Assembly (NCBI GenBank): GCA_034226945.1
Contig: CP120454.1
Location: 496,001 to 560,000, forward strand
Origin: Picochlorum sp. SENEW3
Taxonomy: Eukaryota
Direction of reading: 5' to 3'
Length of the DNA stretch: 64,000 nt
The position numbers and the translations under genes were made by a program. The notes under the pieces were generated by a model that made no database searches, had not been told where the DNA came from, and saw only the letters and a program-made list of their open reading frames with translations. Position 1 is the first letter of the stretch. Each line of letters opens with the position of its first letter. Shown one piece after another: positions 16,447 to 40,318 of the stretch.

Positions 16447-17561
16447 TCACAATTACGCCTTCTCGAATATAGAGGGCTACTTAATAACTTTTTATCATCA
16501 ATTGTATCTTACATGGCTGGGTGCAACTCGAATGTCATGTATCCCATCATCATGATGGTTGTCAAGATGCTTGCTCATGGGCCATGGGCCCGGCCCCAAT
16601 TAATTGGGTTGGATCCATCCACTGTCCAGACAGTAGTCACTGCATGCAGTGATTCACAGGTCGTTGACCCGACAGACCTTGTGAAGGGATTGGCATGAAA
16701 GCATACTACCACACAAGTGGGCCAGTAGTTAGGATGATGATGGTGGATGATTTGCTCTACAGATTTCAAGCATATACCCTGTAAGAGCGTGCACTGAACG
16801 TCCTGAGACTAATGGTTAGGTTCGGTCGGCTGACGGTCCACACCGTAGTAGAGACTGCACTATGTTGGTATCCTGGTAACACAGGCCTTGATTATAATGT
16901 GTTACACGATGGTTTATGTAGTAGAATGGTAAATAATCTTATGAGTCCTCGAGTATAGACTCTGGTTCATGGTTATATTGTGTAATCTTCTTGGTAGCTT
17001 GATTCCTTAATAAGAGAGTGCCTTGAGGCATCATCTGTGCTGTTACATACCCACATACTAGTTGTATGATACTACTGGTATGATACCAGGCGAAGTAGGT
17101 CGCCTGGCGAAAAATCTATAAATTCATACATCAACCAAAATGTTGTTTTCAACCAGATGCTGTACACACTTTTAACAAAGAAAGTTTGAAGGAGTAAAGG
17201 TGAATTTTCAAACTTCGGCTTCGAGAAGCTTCTCGGCCATATATGGTTGCTTTCGAATAAGCGTTTCGAAATGCAGGCTGCGGCGTCTCGGAAGAGGAGG
17301 CGTCTTTGTTTTCGCTTGTGGAGCCTCAGCACGTGATCGAGTGGCTCGATAGCATATAATTTGTTGGTTTGATTTGTAACATCTCATTACGAGAGTGATT
17401 ATCATTGTTTGAACGGCTATAACACGTGAGTGTGATGTGTAACACTTTTGGAACTTTTGGAATCGCTGTGCCAGAATCTCAGAATAAAAGGCTGAGGCCG
17501 ATGGTCAGCACTCCATATGAAAATAGAAGTGTATCAGTGAAAAAAATATCTGTTTAGCCTC

Positions 17562-19100
17562 TTGCAGCCACACGACCACGCGACAAACTTGGAACAGCCA
17601 CGCAACCACGCGACAAACATGGAACAGACACGCGACCACGCGACAAACGTGGAACAGGCACAGAGCGAATTCATCAATCATCTTGATCACGTGGCCCATT
17701 CAAAGTTCAAAAAACTGCTCATGACAGTTGGTGATGTAACTACTGGTATGGTCCCATCTCAAGTTGAATTCAGTTCATTTTTGGACAAGTGTAGGGAAAC
17801 ATATTTTCCATTATTATTGGACACAATTGGTAAAAATGTGGATGAACATCTCACCATATGGTGTCTACAACAATCAATGGATGAGGATGAAGACAAGTGT
17901 CGTCATTTGCTCTTTTGTGCTGTGGGACTCGACAGACCAGACATTATACAGGTCGTCATGAAATACTTTTTGGATCGGAATGTGTGTGCTACATATGACA
18001 CAATCTCCAGGGTCATCACTGATGCCATCCACCTTGCTGCCATGAGGGGAGATGTCACCATGGTGGGGTTGCTTGCTAACTACATCAAGTACGATCCCAA
18101 AAGAGGGACATGTTTGAAGCCTCGTTATTTTCACATTCATGAGACATACAAACATGAGGAACATGATTGTATGGGACCGATTCAGACTGCCGCGTACTAT
18201 GGGCATGTTGGAGTCATCAACCTGTTGGTGGAGCGTGGATGGGTGATTGACCGTTTGCAAGAGGAGAACAATTTATGTATACGCCATTACGCGTCCTCTT
18301 TCCAAAGTATGGTCGAGCATTATCCGTTGCACATTGCTGTGTTGGGAGAGCAATACGATGTTGTCCAATACTTGGTGGAGCAGCATGGATTATCTTTCGA
18401 GAGACTTGACGATTGCAATGCGACGGTACTCTACTACGTCAGGAGCCAGGGCATGTTGAAGTTTTTGAATGAAAAATACAACATAGTGTCTGACTTCTAT
18501 CAATTACACTATCGCTCTCATCTTGGTAGTCCTCTCGCCTGTATAGATGACCCCAACTTGTTCGAAGCAATGATCACAGCCGGTATTGATTTGGAAGACC
18601 ATTTGGACCTATACGGTGGGACAGTGCTATTTGATGAGAACAAGTTGGCTTCCGCCGATATTGTGAGATATATTCTGCGCCACGGGATCGACCTGGATGC
18701 GAAAGACAATGATGGTGACACAGTTTTGCACGTCGCTGCCCAGTACAAGATCCCATTTGAGGTCATGGAACTATTGGTGGATCATGGTGCACCTATCGAT
18801 GTATTGAACAATAAACAACAGACGCCGTACAATGTTGCATGCTCAGTGAATGCCAATGTTCGTGTCAGAGAATTATTGAGGATCGAACAATCACATCCCG
18901 TGAATCATAAATGTGAAGATGTTCCAGCAACAGAGGAGAGTGGACGCTGTATCATCTGCCAGGAGAATATCGCAAGGATTTCCTTCGTCGGGTGTGGACA
19001 TGTCGCCTGTTATTATTGCTACAGTGAAATTTGGTACAGGTCCCATGAGTGCCATGTCTGTCGCAGACCACTGGACAAGGTTATCAGAATCTTCCTTTGA
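17562..19100 (+). CDS. Ankyrin-repeat plus C-terminal RING (C3HC4-type) protein; start uncertain
   Basis: AIHLAAMRGD, PIQTAAYYGH, PLHIAVLGEQ, DGDTVLHVAA; RING CIICQE...GCGHVACYYC...CHVCRRP. Confidence 0.85.
   Translation: MQPHDHATNLEQPRNHATNMEQTRDHATNVEQAQSEFINHLDHVAHSKFKKLLMTVGDVTTGMVPSQVEFSSFLDKCRETYFPLLLDTIGKNVDEHLTIWCLQQSMDEDEDKCRHLLFCAVGLDRPDIIQVVMKYFLDRNVCATYDTISRVITDAIHLAAMRGDVTMVGLLANYIKYDPKRGTCLKPRYFHIHETYKHEEHDCMGPIQTAAYYGHVGVINLLVERGWVIDRLQEENNLCIRHYASSFQSMVEHYPLHIAVLGEQYDVVQYLVEQHGLSFERLDDCNATVLYYVRSQGMLKFLNEKYNIVSDFYQLHYRSHLGSPLACIDDPNLFEAMITAGIDLEDHLDLYGGTVLFDENKLASADIVRYILRHGIDLDAKDNDGDTVLHVAAQYKIPFEVMELLVDHGAPIDVLNNKQQTPYNVACSVNANVRVRELLRIEQSHPVNHKCEDVPATEESGRCIICQENIARISFVGCGHVACYYCYSEIWYRSHECHVCRRPLDKVIRIFL
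17571..17660 (+). repeat. 30-bp tandem repeat, about 3 copies, coding
   Basis: Unit core ACCACGCGACAAAC(T/A/G)TGGAACAG, encoding HDHATNLEQP / RNHATNMEQT / RDHATNVEQA. Confidence 0.85.
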
Positions 19101-19213
19101 TCTTTTTCTTGGTTGATGTTTGAACCTCTTGTTTGACAACAACTTGTAAACAAGAGTCTTTTGTTTTTGTATTACATTGTAACCGGACCGGTTAAACCGG
19201 AAAATATAAAATT

Positions 19214-19509
19214 TTAATTACCGGCAAATGCCAAGCCACCAAGTCCATTGGCCACTTTGAACAGATTGAATGAGGTTGCAAAGACCATGATTTTCCCTGC
19301 TTGGTACCAGGCCTGAGTTTAGCCACAATGTGTGAGGTCTGGATGCGACTGTAATTGCACGTTCCTGATCCGCTTGGCGATTCCGGGAATAGGGCAAAAC
19401 TGGAATCCCCATTGTACGAATCCAATGGCACATACACAAAGAGCAACTCTTTGACTGGCCGTGAGAAGTCGATGGGGATCTTTTTTACGGTGCTTTCACC
19501 CTCAGACAC
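19214..19509 (-). pseudogene. NCLDV double-jelly-roll major capsid protein, C-terminal fragment (internally deleted, frameshifted)
   Basis: IPIDFSRPVKELLFV, SFALFPESPSGSGTCNYSRI and, after a frameshift, KIMVFATSFNLFKVANGLGGLAFAGN* match in order the MCP motifs LNFNHPVKEL, SFALxPExxQPSGTxNFSRI and IFAxNYNxLRIxxGMGGLAF. Confidence 0.85.
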
Positions 19510-19592
19510 TATGCAATAATTGTGAATGCATATTCCAAATCAGATTAGCATTTGAAAATACCGGTATTTTACCCGCGCAACAGGCTGACGAC

Positions 19593-20503
19593 ATGGACGT
19601 GTCAAAAAGCTCAATGCAGGAGATGGGGCTTCTCCCTCTTTAGTGAAACGAATTTCTGAAGCAGATATTGATAAAGATGGCACCTTGAGCATTCATGAGG
19701 TATTCCAGTTGGTTCGTAGCGAACAACGAGCCCAGGCTGACCGCAAGCTATTTCGCAACTTTTTGATTGCCCTGATCGTGGCCAACCTTATTCTTGTCGC
19801 TGTCGTCGTAGGATCAATGTTTGCTATTGTGAAATTGACGAATGAATTGGACGATGATGGAGGGGTGCTCGTGAGCACCAACACTGGAGACGTCATTGGC
19901 ACTGGTGTGGCAACGGACCTCGTTGATTTGTCACGCATGTTCAACGACTCGAGTCTAGCTGAGCAACTCAATCAGGTCATTGTGATGGAAGAGGAAAATT
20001 TTGCGGTGCATCGGGTCGGAAGCATCCGGGCATTTCCTGAGAAGGAGGCAGTTGTAATTGTGAGTCAAGATGGCAGCCTCATTCAGGTGGACACGTATGG
20101 AAGCTGGTATTTAGATGACACCATCGGGAAGCACCTGGCCAGTAACGCATCAAGTCGGATCAGTGATGCAGGCAGGCGCCTTCAATCTACTACATGCGAG
20201 TCCATTGTTAAAGATGTCTCCTGTACTCCAATGGGAGAGGTGACATTTGGCACACAATCAATATCACATCCCTCTAGTTGTGTGTCTGCCATCCCCCAGT
20301 GTGCAAAGTGCGAATCGCGTGACTGTCGTGGCTTTGATTTGCGTCGAAGAGGTATATATGTGTGGGCTGAAGATGCAGATTACAGGCAATGCGTGGAAGA
20401 GAAGTGTAACAAAATTCTTGGCTGTGGGTATACAGTTCAGTACCCTCCACTTTTGCCACCTGTCGTGTCATGGCATCCTCATCCGCCCAACTGCAGGGGT
20501 TGA
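19593..20503 (+). CDS. EF-hand plus transmembrane protein with Cys-rich C-terminus; 5' end lacks an in-frame ATG (possible pseudogene)
   Basis: DIDKDGTLSIHE EF loop, TM FLIALIVANLILVAVVVGSMFAIV, GRRLQ motif, Cys-rich tail; ATG 19593 is in a different frame. Confidence 0.6.
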
Positions 20504-21088
20504 TTGAGGACTCTAGTTCTTTTCTTTTTTCACTCTCTGATCTGTACTTTGCTGAGTAATGTTCCCCATCACCTATACCTAGCCTTGCCAGAAAACCTGT
20601 TATTTGCCTGGACGTGTTACTGGGAATGACAAGAAAACATCTCTGATGTGATTGAGGCTGCTTGAAATATAGACGCATTCACCACGCTCTGGTAGTGAAA
20701 TCATTTTTATTACCCACCATGATGCTGACACATATGTCTCTCATATATCCATACATGTGATGTGCGTGTGTGACACATGTAGACATGGCTGGGGGTGATC
20801 ACCCATCATCATTCCACATATGAGACTTGTTCACACACAGATCTGTGAGCGACCTACAGCGAGATGACCCTTCATATCGCCTGCCAATAGCCCTATTTCT
20901 ATTATTCTAAACAATTATCTCTAATACATTCTGATGTATAGCTTGTGATCAAATATATTTTCGTCAGTCAGTCGCCAGACAAGTATTATTTCAGCCTTTC
21001 AAAAGGAGAGAGTCGAGCATTAGACACTGCAGTTTGCCTGTAGCACAAAAGTATTATATAAATTTCATATAGCATAGAGATTCGCGTC

Positions 21089-21956
21089 ATGAGTGCAATC
21101 CGCTGTGGTCTTGTTCAACCACATTGTATGTTGAATTCTGGGTACAAGAAGACACAGCACCACTCCAGACCATGGCAGACGACCCATGGATGTACATATA
21201 ATTACAGAATGATGCATCATCCGTCACTTGATACTCCCATGGGGAGTGGGCAGAGCCGTATGGCAGTATGCCATGGCTTCTTTTTAAACAACTTATTTGG
21301 TGGAAGGTACGTTATTATTATTATCTTCTTCTTCTTCAGTATCATAGTAATAAAGGTAATAAATACATGATTGTTGAACGTGATGGATTTGCAGTGATCC
21401 ATCCAGCAGCAGCAATAGTAGTGAAAGTCTTGGGCCAGACCCAGACCCAGTGCGGGATTGGTCACAGGAGGATATCGATCAGGTCGTGATCATGACCTGG
21501 AAAGTTTCCAATAGTGATATAGAATACGATATAGTGTATAGAAATGGTGGCCTTGTGGATGCTGCTGCCGTGGAAGCATTATGTGAGAAAGTGAACTGGC
21601 CCAAAAGGCCTCAACACAAGGTGGATGCCGCCCTTAAGAATAGCTTTTTGGTCTCATCAATTACATTAGAAAAACCGGGATGTCTTCCTGAAGAAAGGAG
21701 GTTGATCGGAACAGCTCGATGCACGTCTGATGGTGCTTTTAATGCGACAATATGGGATGTCATGGTGGACCCTGAATTTCAGGGGCAAGGCCTTGGAAAG
21801 GCCTTGCTGGAACTCATGGTGAGGACATTATTGAGAAGAGAAATCAGCAACATAACCTTGTTTGCGGATGCACAAGTTGTCGATTTTTACAAGCGCATGG
21901 GATTTGATGTGGATCCTGAAGGTATCAAGGGCATGTTCTTCAGATTCGGTTATTGA
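21089..21956 (+). CDS. Plastid GNAT acetyltransferase (NSI/SNAT-like); two exons
   Basis: LCEKVNWPKRP, ARCTSDGAFNATIWDVMVDPEFQGQGLGKAL, ITLFADAQVVDFYKRMGF. Confidence 0.9.
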
Positions 21957-22163
21957 GCGAGATACTGCCTGATCTGCGTTGATTACATTTTCATTTTCAT
22001 TATTATTTCTTCTGTGAATACATACATAAACCTTTTTCGAGTCGTCGTGGGAATTCCGCCAATTGGCTGGTATAGAATAGTGATGATCTGATATTTCAGA
22101 GACATTTCGGTAGCATCTGAAGGTTTAGCATTGAAATACAGAATGCCAATCATTAAAAGGAAT

Positions 22164-24065
22164 ATGTCCACTGTTATTTTGTTGTTGATAGTCGCATTGT
22201 CAGCTGTGAGGGGCGATGTGACGGAATCAACTGACAACAGAAAATTGCATTCTTGCCGAGAAAAGCTCCTAGAGTTGGAAGATGAGCATGAGGATCTTCT
22301 GAAGCGATTTAATGTTTTGTCAGAAGAGTATAAAGATGTAAAGAAGGAGCTTCGGGCTACTATCGCGTGTGAGACGACGTTGGATGAGACGACTCGACTG
22401 TTGGATGAGGTGAGGGAGGATGTGGAGCAGAGGAAGGAGCAATTGAAGAATATGGATGTTTTATTGGTTCAGTGTGAGAGGAAGAGGGATAATTGTCTGG
22501 TGGATCTGCATGTGAGTGAGACGAGTTTGGAGGAGTCGTTGGCCAGGGAGCGGCAGTTGGAGAGGCAGTTGAACAAGGAGGATTGTGTGGCGGTGAAGCG
22601 GGATGCTGTGTCGTATCGAGACCAGGCGGAGCAGTGTCTGATTGATTTGGATGCATTGAAAAAGAGGGAGGAGGAGTTGGTGAAGAGAGCTGGAGATCTG
22701 GAAGAGGTGGAGAAGGAATTGGAGACGACCAAGGGGTTGTTGGAGGCAGCATCGAGCGATCGGGAGTCGTTGAATGGGCGAATGGATGCGCTTGAAAAGA
22801 AGACTGTTGTGTTGGAAGAGGTTGAGAGGGAATTGGAGACAACCAAGGTGTCTTTGCAGCGTGCAGAGTCTTCATTGGAGTCTAGAAGCAATGAATTGAA
22901 TGCAACAAAGACTGCATTGAACTCGTTGCTTGAATCCCTTGATTCACATTTACAATATGAGGCGCTGAAAGACGCCCATGAGAAGGAGATTTTGCCATAC
23001 TGGTTGGAACGTCTCGTGAAGAAGGGTGTGCATGTCTGTGATGAGGCATACCACAAGTATGTGCAGCCATTGCATGAATCGTTCGGGGAGGCTGTTCGAA
23101 TGAGAAAAAAGCATGTTGCTGGGAGGGTAAAGAGTATTCATGGGACTGTCAAGTATCACGCATCTCGAGTGGTGAGTGTGTATGTGGTGCCAATGATGTC
23201 AAAAACAAACTTTATGCTGCGTGCACAATTCCCAGGTGGATGGAGGGCCTGTGTGGATACCACAAGATCTGTGGCGGAACTGAGTAGAAATGTGGTAAAT
23301 ACATATTTGAATACATGCCGAGAGTTTGGAATGCATATCAAGCATCGTGGTATGGAGGCGATTGAACATCAGATTGTCAAGGTGTCATTCCTGCAGCAAC
23401 TTGATTCACGCATTGTTGCCTCATCAGCATTTTGGACACTAGTGGGGCTCATCACTCTTCCGCTTGGCATATTTATTTTCATCATGGTGTCCAAAGTCGT
23501 GGTGTATTATTGTAGGAGTGGTACCGCGAGCGTTTCTATTGTGAATATATCAGATGCTATTGGGCTGATTGAGGAGGATATTGGTTATACATTTTCACTC
23601 AAAGACAATCTCATTCAGGCATTAGAAGGCTCGCCTCATCTCTATCAGGTTGGAATGGCAGTGGTGAATCTGTTGCTCGCGAAGCAGCAGAACAATGCCA
23701 GAGCTACGTTGGCAGAGGTGGAAGCAAGAAGCCTTTGTAGTGCGTCTCTTGGCCGAATCGTGCAACGCGGGCCTGGCAGGAAGAGTTTACAGGCAGCACG
23801 ACAGCAGAAGAATGTTCTCTATATTGCCATATTAGCTGCCGTGTTTCGGGATTCACGGGAATCAGTTCAAACTGTGTTGAATGTTTGGAATGGCAGGGGT
23901 TCCCCAGCAGCAGTGCCTCCTGTGAGAGAGGAAGAAATAGAAGAGGAAATAAAAAAGGAAGAAGATGAGGAAATAGAAGAGGAAATGAGCGAGAAGGATG
24001 AATCGGAGGATGTTGAGTTGGAAGATGATGCATCTGAAGATGATGAAAGTGACACATCATCATGA
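22164..24065 (+). CDS. Signal peptide, coiled-coil and TM protein with a degenerate RNase III-like domain and acidic tail
   Basis: MSTVILLLIVALSAVRG; long heptad region; TM AFWTLVGLITLPLGIFIFIMV; IEEDIGYTFSLKDNLIQAL...AILAAVFRDS. Confidence 0.7.
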   Translation: MSTVILLLIVALSAVRGDVTESTDNRKLHSCREKLLELEDEHEDLLKRFNVLSEEYKDVKKELRATIACETTLDETTRLLDEVREDVEQRKEQLKNMDVLLVQCERKRDNCLVDLHVSETSLEESLARERQLERQLNKEDCVAVKRDAVSYRDQAEQCLIDLDALKKREEELVKRAGDLEEVEKELETTKGLLEAASSDRESLNGRMDALEKKTVVLEEVERELETTKVSLQRAESSLESRSNELNATKTALNSLLESLDSHLQYEALKDAHEKEILPYWLERLVKKGVHVCDEAYHKYVQPLHESFGEAVRMRKKHVAGRVKSIHGTVKYHASRVVSVYVVPMMSKTNFMLRAQFPGGWRACVDTTRSVAELSRNVVNTYLNTCREFGMHIKHRGMEAIEHQIVKVSFLQQLDSRIVASSAFWTLVGLITLPLGIFIFIMVSKVVVYYCRSGTASVSIVNISDAIGLIEEDIGYTFSLKDNLIQALEGSPHLYQVGMAVVNLLLAKQQNNARATLAEVEARSLCSASLGRIVQRGPGRKSLQAARQQKNVLYIAILAAVFRDSRESVQTVLNVWNGRGSPAAVPPVREEEIEEEIKKEEDEEIEEEMSEKDESEDVELEDDASEDDESDTSS

Positions 24066-24111: not shown

Positions 24112-25134
24112 TTATTTGTGTCGTCGTTGCGCCACGCGACCCACTGATTGAACAATCCATGCCATCACCAGGGGCACACCGACCCGTTGGACCACCATAC
24201 CAAGAAATTTCCTGATCCCATCTCCATGTGCTTGTGGCAATAACCTTGACACCTCTCGCTCTCGATCATCTATAGAGCGAATACTATACACATTTGTTTC
24301 CGGAGTTATCTCCTCTGACCCGAACATGGAACCTTCCAGGCTGCATACACGATCAAGAAGGCTATTCATCTGCTCCTGCATGGAAGAATACATCCTCCAC
24401 ACCGCCTTGGAATCCTCCTCCATCCTCCCAAGCATCCTTCTCATCTCTTGAATCTGCCTCATATCATCCGTCTTTGACACAGTCTGCTCCTGCATCAATC
24501 GACGAATCACGCCATCGAGAAACAACACGTGCTTTCTCAGCTCGCTACTTTCCCCACTCCCAGATTCATCCATCCGAACCATCAGTGTTTGAATCGCATC
24601 ATGCATCTGCTCCATTTTCCTATCCCTCTCTCCAGCCGCTGCCCTCACCAAACCGCTGATATCAGCATTATCCTTCTCATACGCATCTATATACTCGTTC
24701 ATCGAATCCACATCCAGCTCCACATCCTCTTCAATTGTCCTCACAAGCTCCATCACAGACTCTGTCCCCATGGTTCCATCAGTCACCCTCTCCATGTGAA
24801 ACGAGGGCAACTCGTCCAACGACAATCTATTCGGACTCGCATGCATCGCTTTAATTTTCATGTCCTCGGACGTGTCGTAGACCGCATCACTGCTGCGCTG
24901 CCCTGCTGCCTTGACAGCAGATTCTTTCGTACATGCCTCATATGTCTTGAACAAGAGAGGAGACAACGGTGTATCACCTAATTCCCCCACAGAATCTGAA
25001 CTAGAATGCGTAGACATACCCTGCTGTGCAGATTCATACTCGCTTTCATCGCTTTGCTTCTGTTTCTGTCGTCCAACTTGCAACCGAAACACTTTCTTCC
25101 TTGTCTCGTCTCTCATCATCCTGAAGGATTTCAT
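24112..25134 (-). CDS. Hypothetical coiled-coil protein with hydrophobic C-terminus
   Basis: 340-aa intronless ORF. Confidence 0.65.
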   Translation of the reverse strand: MKSFRMMRDETRKKVFRLQVGRQKQKQSDESEYESAQQGMSTHSSSDSVGELGDTPLSPLLFKTYEACTKESAVKAAGQRSSDAVYDTSEDMKIKAMHASPNRLSLDELPSFHMERVTDGTMGTESVMELVRTIEEDVELDVDSMNEYIDAYEKDNADISGLVRAAAGERDRKMEQMHDAIQTLMVRMDESGSGESSELRKHVLFLDGVIRRLMQEQTVSKTDDMRQIQEMRRMLGRMEEDSKAVWRMYSSMQEQMNSLLDRVCSLEGSMFGSEEITPETNVYSIRSIDDREREVSRLLPQAHGDGIRKFLGMVVQRVGVPLVMAWIVQSVGRVAQRRHK

Positions 25135-25410
25135 TCGAGTCTAAATTTTGTATCGGACCATCATCTGCTGACGAGGTATTCATCGGATGACCAGGATTTG
25201 ACAGCGAGTGTTGTTAGCGCTCTCGCGTGCCTCGAGACAATCTATCCGGTCAATGGTACCGTTGACTAGATGGAAGCTATGCATCATCACTTTTAGAGGC
25301 CAAATTCATGCAGTCCTGATCGAGATTGCATGGGGAGGATATACGCGCACTGCATCAGCTGCACATGTACTCATATTTTATATTCATTTTTATCCGATAT
25401 TGTTCAGGGA

Positions 25411-30204: not shown

Positions 30205-30457
30205 TGTGCCTCAGTTGCGATTTATACTGTTACTATTGGAGCCATCGTGGTCAAAGATATTCGAGTATTGCAGAATCAGGGAGAGATGTGCTTTTTCTTT
30301 GTCCTATTTAAGAAACAACGATTTCAAAAAGAAAGTTTGGTAGTCCATGTAACATTCCATGCAAGCTTTTTTCTTGGTACAAAGCAATTATAATACTATT
30401 TAAAACCAAATAGAAGAGATTAGGGGCGATGACGTGAGATAGTAAGCCTGAAAACGC

Positions 30458-31411
30458 ATGGAACACCAGCCAGAAGGGTCTGTCGGTTTTAGCGACCTCA
30501 AAGTTGGGTATGCCACAGACGATCATCACGAGTCCCCTGGTGGTGACTGTACACCAAATGATGGACGGAGACAGAAGCGGAGAAGGGCTTTTCTAATTCA
30601 GCATCACCATGTGCAAGAGAGTGTTGGCCAAGAGGAAGAGGGTGTTGAGGATGCTGTGAGAAGAGCATGCCGCTTACCAGATTTTGGAGAGATGTCTCCG
30701 AATCATTCCATGTCGAGCGTTGAAGGTATACCTACTATGAATAGAATGGGGTCACCCAATGCGACTTCTTCTCCTGGACAACGAGGTGGGGTCCAAGAGG
30801 ATCAGGCATTGCTGGATGGAGAGAGGGTTGTGAGTGTCGGAGTTGGGGGGTATAGGGTGGATGTGGATACCGATATGATGAATATGGTACAGCAAAGTCA
30901 GCGTACGATGAAATCAACACCTCAGCAGCCTCGAAGAAGGCAACAACAGACGCCAAAATCACGACCAAGGAGAAGCAGACTGGGGCACATGCCAGCAGCA
31001 CGTGGTGGGCCTGAAACGCCCAGTGTTCAGAACTTGATATCCAATATTCCAGCGCCATCTCCATCAGATGCTGGTAGAAATAGAATGCGGACACCATCGA
31101 GTCTTGCGAAGCAAGCAGATGCGTTGGATGCAAGAGTGCAGTACCTTGCATCCTCTGGCGGAAGGCTCCTGTCCACCCTCAAACTCACAGTGCTCCGCAC
31201 AGTCATGGAACAAGGAAAGATGAAGTCTCTTTGCCACTGTGAAGATTCTCTCGGCGTCTTTCGTGGATCTCAGATTATAGTCATAAGCAGTTTCGTGCCT
31301 GATTTGGCACAGGACGAAGCAATTGTAGTGAACAAACCATGGTTGGTGCTTGATGATGATAATGTGCCAATTATGATCTGTCTTGGCCACGTCCAACCCA
31401 TTAAAAGATAA
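30458..31411 (+). CDS. Hypothetical protein, disordered N-terminus and small folded C-terminus
   Basis: 317-aa ORF with ATG start. Confidence 0.6.
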   Translation: MEHQPEGSVGFSDLKVGYATDDHHESPGGDCTPNDGRRQKRRRAFLIQHHHVQESVGQEEEGVEDAVRRACRLPDFGEMSPNHSMSSVEGIPTMNRMGSPNATSSPGQRGGVQEDQALLDGERVVSVGVGGYRVDVDTDMMNMVQQSQRTMKSTPQQPRRRQQQTPKSRPRRSRLGHMPAARGGPETPSVQNLISNIPAPSPSDAGRNRMRTPSSLAKQADALDARVQYLASSGGRLLSTLKLTVLRTVMEQGKMKSLCHCEDSLGVFRGSQIIVISSFVPDLAQDEAIVVNKPWLVLDDDNVPIMICLGHVQPIKR

Positions 31412-39187: not shown

Positions 39188-39301
39188 ATGATGGTCAACG
39201 TCAGTCAGTATATGAACGGCAGATTCAGACACATTCTACCGTATAACCCGCCTTTCATATCCTATTATGAATAGAATCTCGTATAAGAATGTAACTCGAA
39301 G

Positions 39302-40318
39302 ATGAGTTCAAAACTTGGGATACATGCCCTCCTCATCAACGAACAAGGTCACGAAACCTTGATTCGTATGGGTGCAGAGATTGACCAGAAATGGCTGCCA
39401 TTCATCCAAAAACATGTACAAGAAACGCAAGATGAAGCAAAAAAACAACAAGATATCTTGAAAGCGATCCAGATCGACGCAGCAGGAGCCAAAGCGGCGT
39501 CCATTATGGAACTCATCAGACTCACAACAGCAACAATCATACAGGATCAGAAACGATATCAGGCTCAACTCAGACGATGCGTTGACATCTCCTTGGAAGG
39601 CATGACATTAATGGTAGAATCATCAAAACAGATCATGGACAAGATAGTGCAGCGCGTCATTCACCAGGCAACTGTGGAAGCAAACAGGATGTACCAAGCA
39701 ATGACACATCTTGAACCTGGAAGAATAACCTCATATCCAGATATCCCACACAGCCATGTTACAAACGGCAGTACCACTGTTCACGACATTAATAAACTGA
39801 ACCAAGAGTATATAGAGTACGATAGAATCTTTCTCGAGAAGACCGCCACGGAGATGTTGCACAATGCAGTCCCTGACCATGATGCTGTGGCTCAGCAGTA
39901 CAACCAGACATGCGAGAAGCTCGAGAGGCTACGAAACACGAACGCTCTCTACGAAGAAAAACTAGAGCGGATCAGAAAACAGCAACACGCATATACTGTG
40001 GACATGAAACATTCAGAGCAGAATCAGCAGCGTGATGAATCACAGCACAAGCAAGCCTGTGTGAATCTGAAAGCAGAGACAGACTCATTGATCCAAGCTG
40101 CATTCCATGCCCAGTCTGAATGCCGATCAATCGAGGAAACGTCGAATGAAATCCTCAAATCAATCTCATGGGAAAGGTATGGCGTTATGTGCGTTGGAAT
40201 ACGAGGCATTACAACTTGAATATATATACATACATGCTGTGTGTGCAGTTCCAAAGTCCTCGAGGAACTAGAGAGTATTGTGAAAACAGCAGAACGGATG
40301 GTCACACGCCATACATGA
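39302..40318 (+). CDS. Hypothetical coiled-coil protein; probable small final exon
   Basis: 305-aa ORF, GTATGG donor near 40177 and TGCAG acceptor near 40248. Confidence 0.55.

Follow-up and report, generated by a model that had tools for sequence, protein, structure and literature searches.

Endogenous giant-virus DNA is well documented in green algae and in other protists, as far as the accessible parts of the literature go. For Picochlorum, the accessible text of one study, of algal ponds, describes regions with Nucleocytoviricota signatures, with a median length of ~15 kb, in four assemblies, and proposes that Phycodnaviridae infect these algae (PMC11633385). A preprint, likewise in its accessible part, uses Hi-C to tie a Phycodnaviridae to a Picochlorum bin (10.1101/2023.12.06.570405). 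Picochlorum is farmed in ponds on an industrial scale, with viruses suspected of causing crashes there, and the accessible text of two sources gives no cultured virus-host pair (PMC11633385, 10.64898/2026.08.07.743453). In the main text of the paper on the chromosome-scale SENEW3 genome (PMC11092101) the words 'viral' and 'capsid' do not occur, and 'virus' occurs once, in the title of a reference. The solved capsid protein that matters most for what follows is MCPv1 of PBCV-1, which in the accessible descriptions is a minor capsid variant whose capsomers are restricted to the unique vertex; its large DE1 insertion comprises residues 77-188 (PMC9617893, accessible text).

Here we describe a relic of an NCLDV capsid gene in a Picochlorum chromosome, found within a 64-kb stretch of DNA that was analysed as a whole and that we call the window. 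Like GEVEs and smaller NCLDV insertions, it is eroded giant-virus DNA in the nuclear chromosome of a green alga. Unlike GEVEs, it consists of one 293-bp gene fragment, and the ORFs scanned across the 64 kb gave no further hallmark gene; unlike either kind of insertion, its presence varies between closely related read sets. As a piece of eroded viral DNA the relic is ordinary and of a familiar type; what is new is the variable 2303-bp segment that holds it, together with an empty site. A search for published reports naming this locus returned general reports and none that names it, the region list in Table S6 of PMC11633385 lying outside the search. We consider it very probable that the relic is the dead remnant of a chlorovirus-like (Nucleocytoviricota) capsid gene, captured recently by end joining into the Picochlorum nuclear chromosome as part of a strain-variable segment.

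The relic and its lesions

Three collinear pieces of an NCLDV capsid protein lie on the minus strand at 19217-19509 (293 bp), as seen by tblastn and in ORF translation, and all three capsid peptide blocks of the original prediction stand, in order, at the places claimed for them. We number them after P0003, an intact relative of 512 residues. Block 1 (19402-19509, minus strand; tblastn and alignment) comprises 36 residues equivalent to P0003 356-391, with seven differences, H372R among them. Block 2 (19291-19401, minus strand) comprises 37 residues equivalent to 451-487, with the single difference L458S. Block 3 (19217-19291, minus strand), in frame -1 relative to blocks 1 and 2, comprises 25 residues equivalent to 488-512 and agrees with P0003 at every residue from 489 to 512, residue 488 being masked as X at the break. 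Frame A (19291-19509, minus strand) reads VSEGESTVKKIPIDFSRPVKELLFVYVPLDSYNGDS and then SFALFPESPSGSGTCNYSRIQTSHIVAKLRPGTKQGK; the stop-to-stop frame of 115 codons at 19192-19539 (minus strand) contains KKIPIDFSRPVKELLFVYVPLDSYNGDS immediately followed by SFALFPESPSGSGTCNYSRIQTSHIVAKLRPGTKQGK. The second frame (19217-19291, minus strand) reads IMVFATSFNLFKVANGLGGLAFAGN and belongs to an open frame at 19214-19318 with a stop at its end. This is the original capsid stop codon (19214-19216, minus strand), and intact relatives share the ...AFAGN end.

The two frames have one base in common, 19291, which marks a -1 shift ahead of the last 25 residues, close to the position near 19295 at which a frameshift had been proposed. 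The segment said to be missing between blocks 1 and 2 amounts to 59 residues (P0003 392-450), lost in-frame, with the deletion placed at the 19401/19402 boundary. Capsid homology stops upstream of 19509, and the absent N-terminal half corresponds to 355 of the 512 residues of P0003: residues 1-355 have no match anywhere in the 64-kb window at E < 0.67 (tblastn), and tblastn of intact capsids finds no counterpart of the N-terminal jelly roll (PF16903) in the window. The codons that are kept, 98 of ~512, all come from the C-terminal jelly roll. Within the 115-aa frame no Met stands ahead of the part that resembles a capsid, i.e. the relic is without a start codon.

An uninterrupted frame with a start codon is thus broken by the -1 shift at 19291, by the 59-residue gap and by the lack of a Met. 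Because of truncation, internal loss, frame shift and the missing start codon, the relic cannot make a capsid protein; it is a dead fragment that would have no function as a capsid protein and most likely does nothing. Judged by its sequence, it is a fragment derived from the NCLDV major capsid protein family rather than a protein belonging to it. Since the last motif lies in the second frame, the shift also conceals the relic from lists of open reading frames, as the original prediction had pointed out.

Homology to the capsid family

The Pfam profile Capsid_NCLDV (PF04451) matches frame A with E 1.6e-5 (25.2 bits) over its positions 124-157, which fall in block 2, and frame B with E 0.047 (13.8 bits) over positions 173-196 of 196, which fall in block 3. 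Each frame alone stays below the gathering score of 34.8 bits; the two matches are collinear and in order, and a rough simple sum of their bits, which is not a formal test, comes to 39.0 (against 34.8). Compared with solved structures, frame A gives a weak match to PBCV-1 Vp54 (1m4x_A) at two places, 224-267 and 331-354, whose distance of ~90 residues points to an internal loss in the relic. With intact capsids as queries, tblastn against the 64-kb window finds the relic site alone (P0003, E 3e-31; P0004, 9e-27; P0005, 9e-25), all remaining matches of these three proteins having E >= 0.67.

For residue-by-residue comparison the relic frames were joined with X at the break, which gives 97 columns. 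The relic is identical to P0003 at 89 of 97 aligned residues (92%), to the ten close proteins at 80-89/97 and to the next seven relatives at 46-58/97. The ten close proteins have 77 invariant columns, and the relic deviates at three of these (N361S, H372R and L458S); the His at 372 is invariant in 17 of 17 compared proteins and is R in the relic. A tree on the 97 columns places the relic within the clade of the ten close proteins with an ultrafast bootstrap of 99, its place inside that clade not being settled. Identity, tblastn and tree each mark the relic as homologous to full members of the NCLDV capsid family, which carry PF16903 and PF04451. The tblastn value of 3e-31, the 89/97 identity and the lesions together bear out the original reading of a decayed NCLDV capsid remnant in an algal chromosome.

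The parent capsid clade

A search for longer relatives of a 67-aa piece of the relic returned P0003, P0004 and P0005, which are intact and 512 aa long, with identities over the matched part of 97%, 91% and 86%, respectively. These cluster representatives each carry PF16903 and PF04451, and their 90% clusters yield seven further proteins, P0006-P0012 (JGI/IMG, ENA, Logan), the longest contig measuring 359,912 nt and another 23,686 nt. The ten close proteins are ~512 aa long, with the exception of a 298-aa fragment, one protein of 511 aa and one of 520 aa. The source had been proposed to be a possibly undescribed NCLDV lineage. It is uncultured, but it is not unseen, as ten intact relatives (80-89/97) are present in metagenome and Logan data.

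P0003 aligns end-to-end with PBCV-1 MCPv1 (8h2i_bu; E 9.9e-72, residues 4-510 against 3-519 of 520). Its match to Vp54, the main capsid protein, is weaker (E 2.8e-37), as are those to other NCLDV capsids. By these alignments the best solved relative of the ten-protein clade is MCPv1, not Vp54. The closeness of P0003 to a chlorovirus MCPv1 marks the parent gene as a chlorovirus-like gene of the double jelly-roll capsid family, a placement made by PDB E-values only. The alignment to MCPv1 runs over the whole length of P0003, including a long stretch at the DE1 insertion of MCPv1, and the three blocks of the relic have their counterparts in conserved stretches of the second jelly roll and in the C-terminal ...NGLGGLAFA motif. 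In contrast to MCPv1, the window holds 98 broken residues, and the similarity of the relatives is modest outside the core. MCPv1 is a vertex-specific variant in PBCV-1; the parent protein may have been either the main capsid protein of its own virus or such a variant.

Contig collections gave little more. P0003 had no match in IMG/VR contigs and none in a metagenome contig collection, and a degenerate pattern for a conserved 14-residue capsid block had 0 matches in viral contigs (IMG/VR). An alignment of the capsids (A1) found at least one locus in viral contigs, at 28% identity, and six loci in metagenome contigs, at 28-35% identity (L002-L007). One viral-contig match to the 67-aa piece (L001) was rejected: it lies on a phage contig with terminase-like and HNH-like ORFs, matches HIVAKLRP only and is taken as chance.

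Host context

The window represents ordinary nuclear DNA from a compact green alga. It encodes, among others, CAND1, 6-phosphogluconate dehydrogenase (6PGD), a DEAD-box helicase, TBP, SKA1, a plastid-type trigger factor, citrate synthase, eIF5A and ribosomal proteins. Pfam scans took in the 44 ORFs of the 64-kb window that are >=150 aa long and, of the 156 others that reach >=60 aa, 122; in these 44 + 122 ORFs there was no second viral hallmark gene, and the Pfam families were cellular only. The set of genes by which a GEVE is recognised (several of polB, A32 ATPase, D5 primase-helicase, VLTF3, RNA polymerase and others, in a long viral region) does not occur among these ORFs of the 64 kb. Four long ORFs, of 310-657 aa, are without a Pfam family at E <= 1e-3 (22092-24065, plus; 24112-25140, minus; 30452-31411, plus; 39287-40219, plus). 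A 342-aa ORF among them has a borderline spectrin-repeat match (E 0.001). These ORFs are probably lineage-specific host genes.

A variable 2303-bp segment with an empty site

We compared contigs of four public runs (X1, X5, X8 and X12) over 17000-22000, with no outgroup. X1 covers 17020-22000 in a single contig of 34,275 nt with 0 differences, and may be the window's own source and hence not independent. X5 comes from another study and carries another organism label. Its contigs are identical to the window at 17130-17555, 17943-18170 and 18975-19524, and the last of these (record 16, 550 nt, 0 differences) runs from before the capsid stop, through frame shift and deletion point, to past the 5' end of homology. 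The original prediction had named reads showing a misassembly as what would undo it; this exact repeat of 18975-19524 in a different study speaks for the assembled sequence.

A 270-nt contig of X5 skips the locus, joining 17267 to 19571 through five extra letters, TCAGC, with a shorter side of 29 letters; 15 further loose letters match 17224-17238 at 14 of 15. X12, which stems from a third study, has two loose contig ends ahead of 19571/19572 that agree with 17244-17267 at 22 of 24 letters and carry the same TCAGC. X12 and X8 give no cover of 17334-19504 at >=85% likeness, a blank that was not counted as evidence alone. The X5 joint and the X12 ends together indicate that some genomes or haplotypes carry a segment of 2303 bp (17268-19570), with both an ankyrin-RING ORF and the relic of the capsid gene in it, while others lack it. 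An empty site at 17268-19570 is thus observed, with a certainty limited by the short sides of the joint (29 letters in X5 and 29-30 in X12, against a bridge threshold of 31 letters). That the variable segment holds the ankyrin-RING ORF as well was absent from the original prediction.

Capsid homology ends 61 nt short of where the segment itself ends on the right. We read an end so near the edge as a sign that one foreign piece was gained or lost as a whole, and this makes an insertion in this lineage the likelier event. The variable segment shows no terminal repeats and no target-site duplication, and the 64-kb window holds no second copy of it. A perfect 16-nt palindrome (8+8; 19555-19570), the only one of that length in 17200-19650, abuts the right edge exactly.

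Some smaller features of the segment deserve mention. The palindrome at 19555-19570 could be a scar of hairpin-ended DNA, a viral motif or chance. The spacer at 19126-19200, between the convergent ORFs, contains, as read by eye, a 9-bp stem (CTCTTGTTT...AAACAAGAG), a palindromic AACCGGACCGGTT stretch just past the capsid stop, and TGTAA motifs on both strands.

The ankyrin-RING neighbour

The ORF at 17619-19100 (plus strand; 493 aa and a stop, intact) encodes ankyrin repeats (Ank_2, E 7.5e-24) followed by a C-terminal C3HC4 RING finger (zf-C3HC4_3, E 1.6e-10; both Pfam). It converges tail to tail with the relic, with 113 nt from stop to stop. Across all 477 aligned residues, with one 16-residue gap within the RING, its protein is the same as P0140, which NCBI lists as '26S proteasome non-ATPase regulatory subunit 10 [Picochlorum sp. 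SENEW3]' on a contig of 1,562,225 nt; this identity marks the host as a Picochlorum. The 16 residues, CGHVACYYCYSEIWYR, are encoded inside the RING at 18996-19043 and are missing from the P0140 model, where a spurious intron probably accounts for the gap. Only the ankyrin repeats lie behind the name 'proteasome non-ATPase regulatory subunit 10'.

At its 5' end the ORF overlaps a 30-nt tandem repeat in three copies (17565-17661, plus strand; family D1, copies 89% identical), which encode a recurring ...HATN.EQ... peptide. The probable start codon, at 17619, lies in the second copy, and the P0140 alignment begins at that M.

Among 4128 scored candidates, the SENEW3 protein is the only relative of this ORF at E <= 1e-20, and no relative was found in IMG/VR contigs. 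Of the Atlas clusters with ankyrin-RING architecture, the nearest are eukaryotic, several of them from Chlorophyta; one of the ten clusters listed is viral, and it is phage-like and has a U-box. The codon-usage score of the ORF (-1.086) is that of the host (mean -1.080, sd 0.063), and its GC3 is host-like too. The relic scores low (-1.224), a value that comes from 98 codons only.

Right of the segment

Beyond the right edge, an ORF for an EF-hand/membrane protein (19589-20503, plus strand) lacks an ATG in its own frame in the 5' part (19593-19643). An ATG at 19593 lies in another frame and meets a stop after 16 codons. X12 has one additional C behind 19624, and by frame arithmetic this would bring the ATG at 19593 into frame with a 304-aa ORF, so that the EF-hand/membrane gene may be frame-shifted in the window's strain. 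As the X5 empty-site contig has the window's shorter version, this frame change is not tied to the segment. Further right, an X8 contig skips 88 nt (21305-21392) with GT..AG ends, immediately upstream of a GNAT acetyltransferase ORF (21384-21956) and running into its start, which suggests a spliced intron and that X8 contains RNA.

Discussion

The locus can be accounted for by a short series of events. The starting material would have been viral DNA, or a piece of an older and larger integrated element elsewhere in the genome, captured by end joining at an intergenic chromosome break; all three lesions (truncation, in-frame loss, frame shift) may date to the capture or to shortly afterwards. 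The protein identity of 92% to intact environmental capsids, the few private changes and the presence/absence variation all argue that the event was recent. In calling the relic a fossil, the original prediction was right about its viral nature and overstated its age: with 89 of 97 residues identical to an intact capsid and an empty site in two runs, it appears to be young and strain-variable. The foreign DNA at the locus amounts to 2.3 kb at most.

Recent capture has to be weighed against an opposite polarity, in which the segment is ancestral, the relic predates the split of the strains and the empty site is a 2.3-kb deletion. The filler letters are compatible with this order of events, in that deletions repaired by end joining likewise leave a few such letters as in TCAGC. 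Under an unrelated deletion, however, a gap edge lying 61 nt past the end of capsid homology would be a coincidence. The empty state, moreover, occurs in two read sets, one of which is ~2% off the window in its flanks (the divergence counted in X8 record 25 is 29 differing letters and 7 gaps over 1372 nt), while those X5 contigs that carry the segment show no difference from the window and the relic is 92% identical to extant capsid proteins that are intact. We regard an ancestral segment as unlikely. An assembly chimera or viral contamination is scarcely credible: a source culture or sample could contain viral DNA, and X1 may be the window's own data, but the X5 contig that spans the lesions with 0 differences belongs to a different study, host DNA stands on both flanks in the single 34,275-nt contig, and a contaminating gene would be intact, whereas this piece is truncated, deleted and frame-shifted. 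The capsid genes of polinton-like viruses and virophages also encode double jelly rolls, and these elements are linked to Picochlorum blooms in the accessible text of PMC11633385. An origin from such a gene is nonetheless very improbable, as the intact relatives have both NCLDV capsid Pfam domains, so that they do not show the double jelly roll without those domains that would be expected of a polinton or virophage protein, and as P0003 aligns end-to-end with MCPv1 across the large first-jelly-roll insertion (PMC9617893, accessible text).

Within the preferred reading of a recent viral capture, the origin of the ankyrin-RING gene can be seen in two ways. The gene may have arrived with the relic, the whole 2303-bp segment being a single giant-virus piece of which the host now keeps one gene. 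The two ORFs lie tail to tail 113 nt apart in the same variable segment, with the relic within 61 nt of its edge; the ankyrin-RING ORF is whole next to a broken relic and has, at E <= 1e-20, no relative save the identical SENEW3 protein. Ankyrin-repeat and RING proteins are, besides, often encoded by giant viruses. Against a viral source, the codon usage of the ORF is the same as that of host genes, the architecture is common in Chlorophyta and viral in one of ten listed Atlas clusters, and IMG/VR gave no relative. A one-piece viral origin is thus a tentative idea that we place just short of an even chance. A fuller version, in which a very recent and strain-variable viral capture gave Picochlorum a viral gene for an ankyrin-RING protein resembling a ubiquitin ligase, and in which the palindrome at the right edge is a hairpin end opened off-centre, seems doubtful to us.

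The relic is the same kind of link as that of the uncultured Phycodnaviridae suspected on Picochlorum, seen from the host side. Those viruses, chlorovirus-like or phycodnavirus-like, are tied to Picochlorum by co-occurrence or proximity ligation. As host-side evidence, the relic indicates that an uncultured chlorovirus-like clade, represented by ten intact capsids, infects or recently infected Picochlorum. Occupied and empty alleles of the locus make the age and the mechanism of one transfer of DNA from a virus to an alga testable. The ankyrin-RING gene, at present annotated as a proteasome subunit, may be a strain-specific acquisition. Should a recent capture that included a viral ankyrin-RING gene prove true, the locus would be a case, caught in the act, of linear giant-virus fragments turning into host genes.
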